Below, piece by piece: positions 22,503 through 36,651 of a stretch of DNA of 64,000 bases. Position 1 is the stretch's first letter. Every line of letters starts with the position of its first letter. A program made the position numbers and the translations under genes. This DNA is from Christensenellales bacterium. GTDB taxonomy: Bacteria > Bacillota > Clostridia > Christensenellales > SZUA-584. Under the pieces are notes generated by a model, which saw only the letters and a list, made by a program, of their open reading frames with translations, ran no database searches and was not told where the DNA came from. The stretch spans positions 9,618 through 73,617 of the forward strand of contig JBMNOU010000001.1 in the NCBI GenBank assembly GCA_050943215.1. The letters run 5' to 3'.

Positions 22503-23435
22503 CTAAAGCAGCTTTTTCTTCCAAAGAACCAACGCGACTACGGCGGTTGTGATAAGCGAAATACCGGAGACGATTAAAAAACCACCCGGCATATGCTCGA
22601 AGGGTACATCAACATTCATACCCCACAGGCTGGCAAGTAGCGTCGGTATCGTGAGAATGATCGTGACCGATGTTAAAAACTTCATTACGATATTCAAGTT
22701 GTTGGAAATAACGGATGCAAACGCGTCCATCGTTCCCGTGAGAATCTCTCTGTATATCGTACACATTTCTATCGCCTGTTTATTCTCGATGATGACGTCT
22801 TCGAGCAACTCATCGTCATCTGGATAGCGCTTGATAAGGTTGGTTTTCAGCATTTTTTCTAAAACTAATTCGTTTGCTTTAAGAGACGTTGCAAAATATA
22901 CCAGAGATTTTTCCAGTTTGAGCATCTGGATAAGCTCCCGGTTTTTTAGGGATTTATGCAATGCGTTTTCTACCTGTGTGCTGGCTTTCTCGATCTGCCG
23001 CAAATATTGCAGGTAACGTGAGGAGTTTTTATACAACAGATGATAGACAAAACGCGTTTTTTTTGTACAATCAAACCCCTTTACACGTCCCTTATAGAAA
23101 TCCTCGATGATTGTTGATTCCTCGAGACAGACAGTAATGATATTATTCTCCGTAATAATAATGCCCAAAGGCATTGTATTGTATAGAAATGAGGTTCCTT
23201 CCGGTTCAATAACGGGGATATCAACAAGGATCAGCGTCTGTTCGTCTTCTTTATCTATTCGGGGTGTTTCTTCTTCGTCCAGCGCCGCTTGTAGTATATC
23301 AAGCTCTACTGCACATTCTTTGGATACAATGTCCAATTCTTCTTTGGTTGGATCCAATAGGTGTATCCATGAACCTGGGCAGGCAGCAGTCTGGTTTACT
23401 AGTAAACCGTCGTTTGTATTATAATAATTGATCAT
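22503..23435 (-). CDS. corA: CorA-family magnesium/cobalt transporter
   Basis: GMN signature (LWGMNVDVPF) and two C-terminal TM helices. The start is trimmed to ATG 23435 (MINYYNT). Confidence 0.9.
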   Translation of the reverse strand: MINYYNTNDGLLVNQTAACPGSWIHLLDPTKEELDIVSKECAVELDILQAALDEEETPRIDKEDEQTLILVDIPVIEPEGTSFLYNTMPLGIIITENNIITVCLEESTIIEDFYKGRVKGFDCTKKTRFVYHLLYKNSSRYLQYLRQIEKASTQVENALHKSLKNRELIQMLKLEKSLVYFATSLKANELVLEKMLKTNLIKRYPDDDELLEDVIIENKQAIEMCTIYREILTGTMDAFASVISNNLNIVMKFLTSVTIILTIPTLLASLWGMNVDVPFEHMPGGFLIVSGISLITTAVVALVLWKKKLL

Positions 23436-23819
23436 GGCAAGCACCGCCTTTCTTTTTGGCGATGTGCATTTATGCTTGCTCTGTAATATGCGCGCCGCCA
23501 AGGTGTATTATTGGTTGTTGTCGAGGGTCTGCGTCCACGCATACCACCTCCTCATAATGTGTTTTGGTATAAAAATAAAAACGCACGAAAGATTACATGG
23601 TTTGGTTTTAGCAGTAATGAAAGGCAATGAAATAAATTCAAAAACTGGACGTACTTTTGCATCATCGCAAACAAACATCCCCGGCTTTGCCCCAAGCTAC
23701 CCCAAAAACAATACGTTTTGGCTGATTGTTCGTCGCTGCTAAACCATAATTATTATAACACGTCAGCAAAATAAATCAACAATTCGCCACCTAATCAAAA
23801 AAAACGTTGAAGTGTATAT

Positions 23820-23848
23820 TTGACATCGCTTTTGGCAAGATTTATAAT
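23820..23848 (+). promoter_or_regulatory. Consensus sigma-A promoter
   Basis: TTGACA (23820-23825), exactly 17 nt, then TATAAT (23843-23848). No ORF follows for about 400 nt. Confidence 0.7.
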
Positions 23849-23854
23849 CAATAA

Positions 23855-24074
23855 GGTGGCGGGTCTGTGGTTGAAAGTCGATGCCAGCCGCGGGCAAAAC
23901 GACCCACGTAACCCGATTGATGATCGGCGAGCATGGCGCGGTTTAGATGTTAGCCCGGCCGGATTTTATTTGTTCCGAGAGGCATAGTAGTGGGGAGGGA
24001 GATCCCTTAAGAGCGAAATGTCCAGCCGGCGGATGTGGGGCAAAAGACCAGGTCAGCCGCCGCCTTATTATTTT
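23855..24074 (+). ncRNA. Candidate structured small RNA, about 220 nt, class unresolved
   Basis: It starts about 7 nt after the consensus -10. The GC-rich body contrasts with AT-rich flanks. The 5' GGUGGCGG/GGUCU can pair with the 3' AGACC.../CCGCCGCC. There are local hairpins such as CCGAUugaugAUCGG. It ends in a GC stem followed by UUAUUAUUUU. Confidence 0.5.
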
Positions 24075-24249
24075 AAATATATGTTAAAATATTTTTATTT
24101 TTAATGCGTTATCAAGATATCTTAATTTTTTGTCCTTTATTGCAAAGATTTCGGCGTATTTTGTTATATTTTTTTGTTGCATTAAAAAATAATATTGTAT
24201 ATTATTGATGTTAAAATAGTCGGTCCCTAGTTAAAGGAGGGAAAATCAG

Positions 24250-25383
24250 ATGTATGAAGTAAAAGTTCTTGATAAAAAATCGAGACATATTAAAAAATTT
24301 ATTAAGCTTGAATTTAAGATGTACAAAGATGATGAGAACTGGGTTGCTCCCCTTAAATCAGATACAAAAAAGTTACTTAAGGGGAAAGAGAATCCTCTTT
24401 TTGAAAACGGAGACCAGGCTTTTTTTATGGTTTATAAAGGCAAAAGGCCGGTTGGACGTATTCTTGTTGGAATAGACGAAGAGCTTAACCGTGTGCGCGG
24501 ATTTAAACAGGGTTTTTTTTCTATGTTTGAATGCATTGACGATGCCGAGGCCTGCAAAGTACTACTCGACGCTTCATGCAACTGGCTTTCGGAAAAAGGA
24601 ATGGACAGGATCATCGGTCCGCTTTCGCCTTCGAATGGTGATGACAGGAAAGGTTTTGTCGTTATGGGAGAAGGGCCTCCTGTGCTTTTGAACGCCCATA
24701 CTAAAAAATATTATCCGAAGCTCATTGAAAAATATGGTTTTACCAAAAACGATGATCATTACGCGTATCTCTTTATACCGAAAGAAATTGACATAGAGCG
24801 CCATAGGAAAGCCGTTGAATTCGCAAAAAGGAAAGGCGGTTTTAGGGTCGATAAGATTAACATAAAAGACATGATGGGCGAAGCAAAAGCGATAAAGCAA
24901 GTTCTTGACAATAGCATACCTGAGGAATGGGATTATCTTGTCGCACCGTCTCTTGATGCAGTCATCAAAGAATTCAAAAGTCTCGCACAGTTTTATGACG
25001 GCAACTTTTGTTATATTGCAAGAAAAGGTGATATTCCGATCGGTTTTATGATCGCACTTCCGGATTACAACCAGGTATTAAAACGCATGAATGGAAAGAT
25101 ACTGCCAATTGGATGGGCGAAATTCCTTTATTACAGACGCAAGATTACAGGCGCGCGCGCATTAGTACAGATGGTTGACCGGAATTACCACAACCTGGGA
25201 GTCAATTATGCGATGTATTTTGAAGCATATCAGGATTGGCTGAAAACAAACGGAAGGCTTCAATATGTTGAGGCCTCATGCATCGATGAAGTGAACACAT
25301 CATCGAGAATAAGTGTTGAAAGGGTGGGCGGAAAACACTACCGGACATATAGGACCTATCGCTATGATCTGAATAATAAATAA
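24250..25383 (+). CDS. Hypothetical protein, possibly GNAT-fold acyltransferase
   Basis: 377-aa ORF with an AAAGGAGG RBS. No catalytic motif was recognised with certainty. Confidence 0.35.
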   Translation: MYEVKVLDKKSRHIKKFIKLEFKMYKDDENWVAPLKSDTKKLLKGKENPLFENGDQAFFMVYKGKRPVGRILVGIDEELNRVRGFKQGFFSMFECIDDAEACKVLLDASCNWLSEKGMDRIIGPLSPSNGDDRKGFVVMGEGPPVLLNAHTKKYYPKLIEKYGFTKNDDHYAYLFIPKEIDIERHRKAVEFAKRKGGFRVDKINIKDMMGEAKAIKQVLDNSIPEEWDYLVAPSLDAVIKEFKSLAQFYDGNFCYIARKGDIPIGFMIALPDYNQVLKRMNGKILPIGWAKFLYYRRKITGARALVQMVDRNYHNLGVNYAMYFEAYQDWLKTNGRLQYVEASCIDEVNTSSRISVERVGGKHYRTYRTYRYDLNNK

Positions 25384-29629: not shown

Positions 29630-29750
29630 CCCCTTATCAAGAGAGGTGGAGGGACGGGCCCGATGAAACCCGGCAACCGGACGCAAGTCATGGTGCCAAT
29701 TCCCGAGAGATGAGGTAAAACTTTTCTGCCTCGCTGTCGCGGGGTTTTTA
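29630..29750 (+). promoter_or_regulatory. SAM-I (S-box) riboswitch with terminator
   Basis: CUUAUCAAGAGAGGUGGAGGGACGGGCCCGAUGAAACCCGGCAACC...GGUGCCAAUUCC...GAGAUGAGG matches the S-box core almost residue for residue. P1 is CCUUAUC/GAUGAGG. A downstream imperfect stem ends in GGGGUUUUU (29741-29749). It sits 23 nt before metK. Confidence 0.92.
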
Positions 29751-36499: not shown

Positions 36500-36614
36500 A
36501 TAAAAAAACACCTGCAGAACATTACTGTCCCACAGATGTGCTGATCTCAGATCTGCTGCCGCTTTCGCAGCCCGGCCCCATGAACCAAATCTGGCTCATC
36601 GCCTGCTCAGTTTG
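36500..36614 (-). promoter_or_regulatory. Candidate czcD (NiCo) riboswitch leader
   Basis: Read on the minus strand, ACUG...CAGU closes three hairpins: AUGAGCCAgauuUGGUUCAU, GCUGCgaaaGCGGC, and GCAGAUCugaGAUCAGC. A UGGGACAG junction and a U7 run follow. It lies in the roughly 215-nt leader of a CDF transporter. Confidence 0.45.
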
Positions 36615-36651
36615 TACTGTCGTTTACATGCAGTGCAAAAAGATAAGATTA

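Follow-up and report, generated by a model that had tools for sequence, protein, structure and literature searches.

A perfect sigma-70-type promoter in an AT-rich intergenic region, followed by a GC-rich block and then by a gene on the same strand, raises two questions: what kind of RNA is made at this locus, and does that RNA act on its own or as the leader of the gene that starts at 24250? The locus lies within a 64-kb stretch of DNA from a Christensenellales bacterium, the whole of which was analyzed and is referred to here as the window. A preliminary description of the locus, made from the sequence, had proposed a roughly 220-nt GC-rich structured RNA of unrecognised class, and had named 6S RNA, the raiA motif, a novel small RNA and a riboswitch for the 24250 gene as possibilities. 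Our results leave us almost certain that positions 23854-24065 on the + strand are a single-copy gene of the known raiA motif RNA (ModT), which would be independently transcribed and act in trans, and is not the leader of the GNAT-like gene downstream. The raiA motif RNA (Weinberg et al. 2017, PMC5737381; Soares et al. 2024, PMC10861870) is an abundant noncoding RNA known from more than 2,500 Gram-positive species. The main features of the locus are as follows.

23820-23848, + strand: sigma-A promoter (sigma-70 type) serving the raiA RNA gene, TTGACA, 17-nt spacer, TATAAT, 12/12 in the consensus scan
23854-24065, + strand: 212-nt gene of a raiA motif RNA (ModT), subtype with P7/P8 but no P2, assigned by RF03072 and covariation
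24066-24075, + strand: U-rich tail UAUUAUUUUA directly after helix P1a, read from the sequence and presumed to be the 3' end region
24250-25383, + strand: gene for a 377-aa GNAT-like protein, starting 185 nt downstream of the RNA on the same strand

Family membership and fold

When the entire window was scanned against Rfam 15, the covariance model of the raiA RNA (RF03072) matched 23854-24065 on the + strand with 184.8 bits, compared to a gathering score of 101.3 (E 4e-47). The match was full-length, spanning model positions 1-209 of 209. The element is thus already known: it is an ordinary full-length member of a described family, and no new class of RNA. What stands of the preliminary description is a structured noncoding RNA, roughly 215-220 nt long, behind a strong promoter of its own; the class does not, although the raiA motif was among the possibilities listed, and that suggestion proved to be the right one. 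The Rfam scan that had been proposed as a check gave a confident match, and with it the case for novelty falls. The view of the region as a GC-rich block in AT-rich DNA agrees with a G+C content of 55-57% over 23850-24049 and of 22-30% in the flanking spacers. The earlier remark that no credible ORF follows the promoter also fits our results, since the ORFs overlapping the block are all short (44-55 aa), and the differences in loop length between aligned relatives are not divisible by three, which argues against coding and against a conserved reading frame.

The RNA is widely retained among relatives. A search of the organism's own 2.07-Mb, 136-contig assembly revealed one copy, with a score identical to that of the window scan, and matches above the cut-off were found in 25 of 31 genomes (the organism's own and 30 relatives); every one of the 18 genomes sampled from the organism's own taxonomic family has one copy. 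We aligned this RNA with 19 matches from relatives, giving 20 sequences, and counted standard pairs across the helices. Under the Rfam structure, 89.5% of the cells were standard pairs and 23 pairs had changed on both sides, while under the helices derived from cryo-EM, together with PK1, these values rose to 97.5% and 27; in neither case did any of 500 shuffles reach the observed result. Sliding the partners of the helices derived from cryo-EM by 1-3 columns, as a control, reduced pairing to 28-47%. The nested Rfam structure was weak in one helix only, in the P4/P5 area (51% of cells paired), and it was the exchange of this helix for the P3a/P3b/P4/P5 pairs derived from cryo-EM that brought pairing to 97.5%. 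Judged by this alignment, the published fold (P1a/b/c, P3a/b, P4-P8 and PK1) holds across the 20 relatives. Minimum-free-energy folding of the single sequence, by comparison, gave z = -0.92 and a fold that was partly wrong; because thermodynamic folding of one sequence neither recognises nor refutes this RNA, we relied on the family model and on covariation instead.

When the RNA was fitted to the secondary and tertiary structures in the literature (PMC10861870; cryo-EM, PMC12968392), the following parts were assigned.

23854-23862 with 24057-24065, + strand: P1a, GGUGGCGG/CCGCCGCC, with eight covarying pairs
23863-23864, + strand: conserved GU bulge in the 5' strand, as in PMC12968392
23865-23867, + strand: P1b, 5' strand CUG (CUG/CAG), pairs invariant or covarying
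23868-23872, + strand: P1c, 5' strand UGGUU (UGGUU/GACCA), pairs invariant or covarying
23873-23907, + strand: core of the RNA, architecture according to the cryo-EM paper (PMC12968392)
23873-23876, + strand: GAA(A) tetraloop-like turn, here GAAA
within 23873-23907, + strand: P3a (GUCG/CGAC), A-rich asymmetric internal loop (AU/AAAA) and P3b (GCC/GGC)
23886-23892 with 23937-23943, + strand: PK1, between the P3b apical loop AGCCGCG and CGCGGUU in the P5-P6 linker
23904-23907 with 24035-24038, + strand: P4, CCAC with GUGG
23913-23927, + strand: P5 hairpin, CCGAU-UGAUG-AUCGG, with 4/4 tested pairs 100% paired and each changed on both sides
23943-23952, + strand: exposed single-stranded linker UUAGAUGUUA between PK1 and P6, read from the sequence
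23955-24029, + strand: P6-P7-P8 domain, with a loop-E-like AGUA/GAA motif in P8, from the Rfam alignment
24046-24065, + strand: 3' strands of P1, the partners of 23854-23872
24051-24053, + strand: conserved GGU bulge in the 3' strand, as in PMC12968392

The three-part P1 with its GU and GGU bulges has been defined as a raiA feature (PMC12968392), and it accounts for the complementary ends that had been noticed at the outset: the pairing of GGUGGCGG with CCGCCGCC is helix P1a, in which eight pairs covary. The adjoining pairing proposed between GGUCU and AGACC, however, is not in the register of the family, in which UGGUU and GACCA form P1c, CUG and CAG form P1b, and the GU and GGU remain as conserved bulges. 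The internal hairpin CCGAU...AUCGG was correctly recognised and corresponds to P5, where all four tested pairs are compensatory. Both of the related modules that had been pointed out are present and fall within highly conserved segments of the family, the first covering P3b, the PK1 loop, the 3' strand of P3a and the 5' strand of P4, and the second covering the 3' strands of P6 and P4, the linker and the 3' strand of P1c. The conserved segments 23884-23904 and 24023-24049 have the words CCAGCCG and GGGCAAAA(C)GACC in common, a similarity that belongs to the family consensus.

Within the core, pairs are standard in 20 of 20 relatives, with the exception of the outermost PK1 pair (16/20); 97-100% of the P3a-P3b, P4 and PK1 pair cells are standard, and covariation occurs in P3a and PK1. 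The pairs of P6, P7 and P8 are 96-100% paired and include 10 that covary; the present RNA has U-U at one P7 pair. PK2 of the family joins the 5' portion of the P5-P6 linker to the P4-to-P1c linker, and the candidates for its two strands here are AUG (23933-23935) and GGCAAAAG (24039-24046). Its two Watson-Crick pairs could not be placed unambiguously, because the P4-to-P1c linker varies in this lineage: it is GGCAAAAG here, its commonest form among the aligned relatives is GGGCAAAG (9/19), and several relatives carry GGGCAAAG, GGGAAAAG or GGUAAAAG. PK2 was left out of the pair counts.

Taken part by part, the RNA resembles the RF03072 family in that the consensus helices P1 and P3-P8 and PK1 are all present, as are the GU/GGU bulges, the GAA(A) turn, the loop-E-like motif of P8 and the conserved linker. 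It also shares with the family its single copy, its GC-rich composition within an AT-rich intergenic region and its occurrence in the Bacillota or Actinomycetota. The linker differs slightly, UUAGAUGUUA agreeing with the published UUAGA(C/A)GUAA at 8 of 10 positions; the two differing positions also vary among the 20 relatives. The alignment shows conservation of UUAG, of the G at 23949 and of the last A. The absence of P2 places this RNA in the C. acetobutylicum subtype. Like Ca-raiA, the C. acetobutylicum RNA solved by cryo-EM (PMC12968392), it has P7 and P8, and the P1a/P1b/P1c arrangement and the three-way junction with GAA(A) are directly apparent from its sequence. At 212 nt it compares with 204 nt for Ca-raiA, and differences from the latter lie in the peripheral loop sequences at the tips of P5, P7 and P8; the U-U pair in P7 and GGCAAAAG as the P4-to-P1c linker are features of the present RNA.

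Promoter and gene neighbourhood

The perfect TTGACA-17-TATAAT at 23820-23848 that drew attention to the locus was confirmed, and is the sole exact match on either strand of the window, where shuffles predict 0.01. The -10 hexamer ends 5 nt short of the RNA, whose first base is also the first model position, and we therefore predict that the RNA starts at 23854-23856, coinciding with the 5' end of P1a. The promoter is conserved in the family along with the RNA: 15 of the 16 same-family loci fetched (the present one included) have a perfect TTGACA-N16-18-TATAAT 5-8 nt before the RNA, and the sixteenth has a promoter that agrees with the consensus at 11 of 12 positions. Such conservation fits what has been published for ModT of C. 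difficile, which is transcribed from one intergenic start site with a canonical SigA promoter and comes close to rRNA in abundance and stability (PMC11706538). In C. difficile 630, as here, the single intergenic promoter is located at the 5' end of P1 and the RNA is without P2 (Lence et al. 2024, PMC11706538).

The surroundings of the gene differ from those usually seen. The typical raiA RNA site is between comFC and raiA/hpf (74% and 66% of published cases), although this arrangement is not obligatory. Here the RNA is found instead between a divergent upstream corA (PF01544) and the GNAT-like gene, which is followed by a convergent rsmG/gidB. The upstream, divergent corA adjoins the RNA in 12 of 20 loci (11 of the 19 fetched relatives and the present one). 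The hpf gene of the organism is located away from the RNA, on contig C106, downstream of purA and the SRP RNA, the latter being identified as follows.

Contig C106 (L021), 1681-1946, - strand: large bacterial SRP RNA (RF01854, 172.7 bits), in the order purA/SRP RNA before hpf

Four other families of the same order retain the classic arrangement in part. In these families a comFC-like gene (Pribosyltran) precedes the RNA, with a double zinc ribbon in two of the three scanned, and a small, similarly starting reading frame follows the RNA in 4/4; this frame encodes a zf_Tbcl protein in the two cases scanned, and hpf comes next in one. In the organism's own family, by comparison, the RNA gene and its promoter occupy a different site, corA-rsmG, from the classic comFC-hpf. 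The contexts of raiA RNA genes have been reported to be variable (PMC10861870), and the shift is within the variability already described for the RNA family.

Several further observations were made on these neighbourhoods. In the other families of the order, the small frame starts 35-40 nt after the raiA RNA; at L020 1750-2022 and L013 1836-2114 its product is a zinc-finger protein of the double treble-clef type, about 90 aa long (PF13451 and PF23477), whose gene at L020 is ahead of hpf, and at L002 and L019 the frame downstream of the RNA opens with the same residues, MYEDKTLV, as seen from the sequence start. In the window, corA is the ORF 22503-23501 on the - strand, with a leader of about 250-300 nt in the region 23436-23780 (- strand) and a divergent leader promoter, TTGATT-16-TATAAT, at 23779-23752 with an upstream TG; a permissive scan of the corA leader found no known Rfam family, and no M-box. 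The window also contains a NiCo riboswitch at 36523-36620 (- strand, 82.4 bits) and a SAM-I riboswitch at 29631-29716 (+ strand, 72.7 bits), both above their gathering scores, the P4 hairpin of the latter being missing in the alignment.

The 377-aa protein encoded downstream of the RNA has no Pfam or NCBIfam match of its own. Its homologues of equal length number in the hundreds, and some are named GNAT-family N-acetyltransferase; the nearest named relatives are in Bacillota and Christensenellales MAGs, and others, at 28-35% identity, in Myxococcota and Sphingomonadales. The protein offers no functional clue that would connect it with the RNA.

Rival readings and the 3' end

The block could in principle belong to another RNA class (6S RNA, tmRNA, SRP RNA or RNase P), or be a functionless GC-rich island that arose by chance. 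We consider this exceedingly improbable, as nothing speaks for it beyond the initial uncertainty of the preliminary description. In a permissive scan of 23300-24400, no rival Rfam family appeared at E <= 1 apart from a chance snoRNA match (21.7 bits, E 0.57), so that raiA alone scores and neither the 6S RNA nor the novel small RNA considered at the outset is supported, the RNA being a member of RF03072. The SRP RNA of this genome is located elsewhere, on contig C106, and a chance island is excluded by the strong conservation and covariation in the 20 relatives. A more specific rival takes the raiA-type element for a leader at the 5' end of the GNAT-like gene 24250-25383, a ligand-sensing riboswitch or cis-regulator that controls read-through across the 185-nt AT-rich spacer. 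The arrangement itself invites this reading, in that the RNA lies upstream of the gene on the same strand with no canonical terminator hairpin in between, the order of RNA and then GNAT-like gene recurs in five relatives (four in genus g3, plus the Bacillota MAG OH_CDB_36, a further close relative), and the Rfam type label of RF03072 is 'Cis-reg; riboswitch'. However, the GNAT-like gene follows the RNA in only 5 of the 20 sampled loci, all of them in the organism's own genus or genus g3, and in the other 15 the next gene is DUF975, an isochorismatase on the opposite strand, or unknown. These varied downstream genes indicate that the RNA has no fixed cis partner. Conversely, no raiA RNA was found near 19 more distant homologues of the 377-aa protein, from Proteobacteria and Myxococcota. 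The spacer is not conserved, save that several aligned loci have, some 50 nt upstream of the ATG, a weak element resembling TGTATAnT, which may be the -10 of the GNAT-like gene and would suggest that the gene has a separate promoter; we found no conserved expression platform, terminator or anti-terminator between the RNA and 24250. In addition, a copy on a plasmid or elsewhere in the chromosome rescued the deletions made in C. acetobutylicum and C. difficile, and the authors of both studies reject a riboswitch role (PMC10861870, PMC11706538), a conclusion also reached in a published analysis of 887 genomes from distance and orientation. Because the context is variable and the deletions are rescued in trans, we regard the Rfam label as historical. 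The riboswitch for the 24250 gene that had been suggested is accordingly not supported, and we judge a leader function to be very improbable.

For an independent raiA RNA, the way in which transcription ends becomes of interest. The run UUAUUAUUUU, which had been noted as a 3' tail, is indeed present directly 3' of P1a, but it is not conserved, the first 12 nt after the RNA containing 0-8 T among relatives, and no canonical hairpin terminator was found in a scan of the + strand from 24066 to 24249. A downstream hairpin terminator is present in only a few relatives. The local 3' hairpin CGGCGG/CCGCCG (24028-24063) was considered as a classical terminator and rejected, as it was no better than shuffled sequences (z = -0.20). 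For ModT, the literature describes a short form of about 215 nt that ends right after P1, and a long read-through form where an intrinsic terminator is nearby (PMC11706538). C. difficile 630 has both, its 260-nt isoform ending at a downstream intrinsic terminator for which there is no counterpart hairpin here, whereas C. acetobutylicum, without an extra terminator, makes one short form. Because this locus also lacks a downstream hairpin terminator, a single RNA of about 215-220 nt, corresponding to the C. difficile short form, would be expected.

It is conceivable, if rather unlikely, that the helix P1a and the U-tail would themselves act as the terminator, with the 190-nt folded RNA as the 'loop', or that the 3' end would be formed by processing, in a raiA gene that, in this family of uncultured, Christensenellales-like Clostridia, has moved from the ancestral comFC-hpf site to corA, with its perfect promoter kept in nearly all genomes. 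If this is true, the lineage would provide a natural minimal transcription unit for the study of raiA 3'-end formation and of the relevance of the link to hpf and comFC. Less probable still, in our judgment, is that an independent, trans-acting raiA RNA also contributes to its neighbour, partial read-through past a weak 3' end adding to the expression of the GNAT-like gene, with a long isoform that is in effect an accidental mRNA leader. In keeping with such read-through, the U-tail is the only termination signal, no hairpin terminator following P1a in this genome, and long ModT isoforms produced by read-through have been described for C. difficile, C. perfringens and P. sordellii. In those species, however, read-through stops at a nearby intrinsic terminator and not in a gene, and C. 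acetobutylicum, which is likewise without an extra terminator, yields the single short form.

Proposed action and significance

As an independent raiA RNA, the product of this locus would be made from the sigma-A promoter (23820-23848), with its 5' end at about 23854-23856 and its 3' end near 24066-24075, just past P1a, and would be a stable RNA of about 215-220 nt. It is predicted to fold into the published pyramidal architecture, in which the P1a/b/c arm closes a compact core (P3a-P3b, P4, PK1 and PK2), and P5, P6-P7 and P8 form peripheral arms. By homology, it would act in trans, as a very abundant RNA of the housekeeping type, on the transition from growth to stationary phase. It is not the leader of the GNAT-like gene at 24250. 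In the clostridia studied, the effects of the RNA include sporulation, aggregation and the level of c-di-GMP: spore formation and aggregation were affected in C. acetobutylicum (PMC10861870), and for C. difficile the published phenotypes are a delay of the transition and effects on sporulation and the level of c-di-GMP (PMC11706538). The roles of ModT in c-di-GMP, sporulation and toxin are those of C. difficile; for the present RNA, trans action, abundance, physiological role and protein partners are suggested by the literature on its homologues.

The RNA probably works within a ribonucleoprotein, possibly with KhpA-KhpB bound at the exposed linker. These proteins bind raiA RNAs in vitro with a Kd of about 2 uM, and the linker UUAGA(C/A)GUAA has been proposed as their binding site (PMC12968392). 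Binding by KhpB is disputed, since ModT was not among the KhpB ligands in an earlier in vivo analysis (PMC11706538), in contrast to the micromolar binding in vitro (PMC12968392). The genome of this organism encodes KhpA (contig C111), KhpB/Jag (contig C117) and two Spo0A-type proteins, indicating that the presumed partners and pathway exist in it.

The main consequence of our analysis is that the annotation is settled: the intergenic region should be labelled as a raiA/ModT noncoding RNA gene, and neither as a new class of RNA nor as the leader of the GNAT-like gene. The raiA family is of interest because it ranks among the most widespread structured RNAs of bacteria that have no known biochemical function, a matter to which this copy adds nothing new. 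The perfect sigma-A promoter found family-wide fits the rRNA-like abundance published for ModT, and the move away from comFC and hpf shows once again that the RNA is independent of those neighbours.
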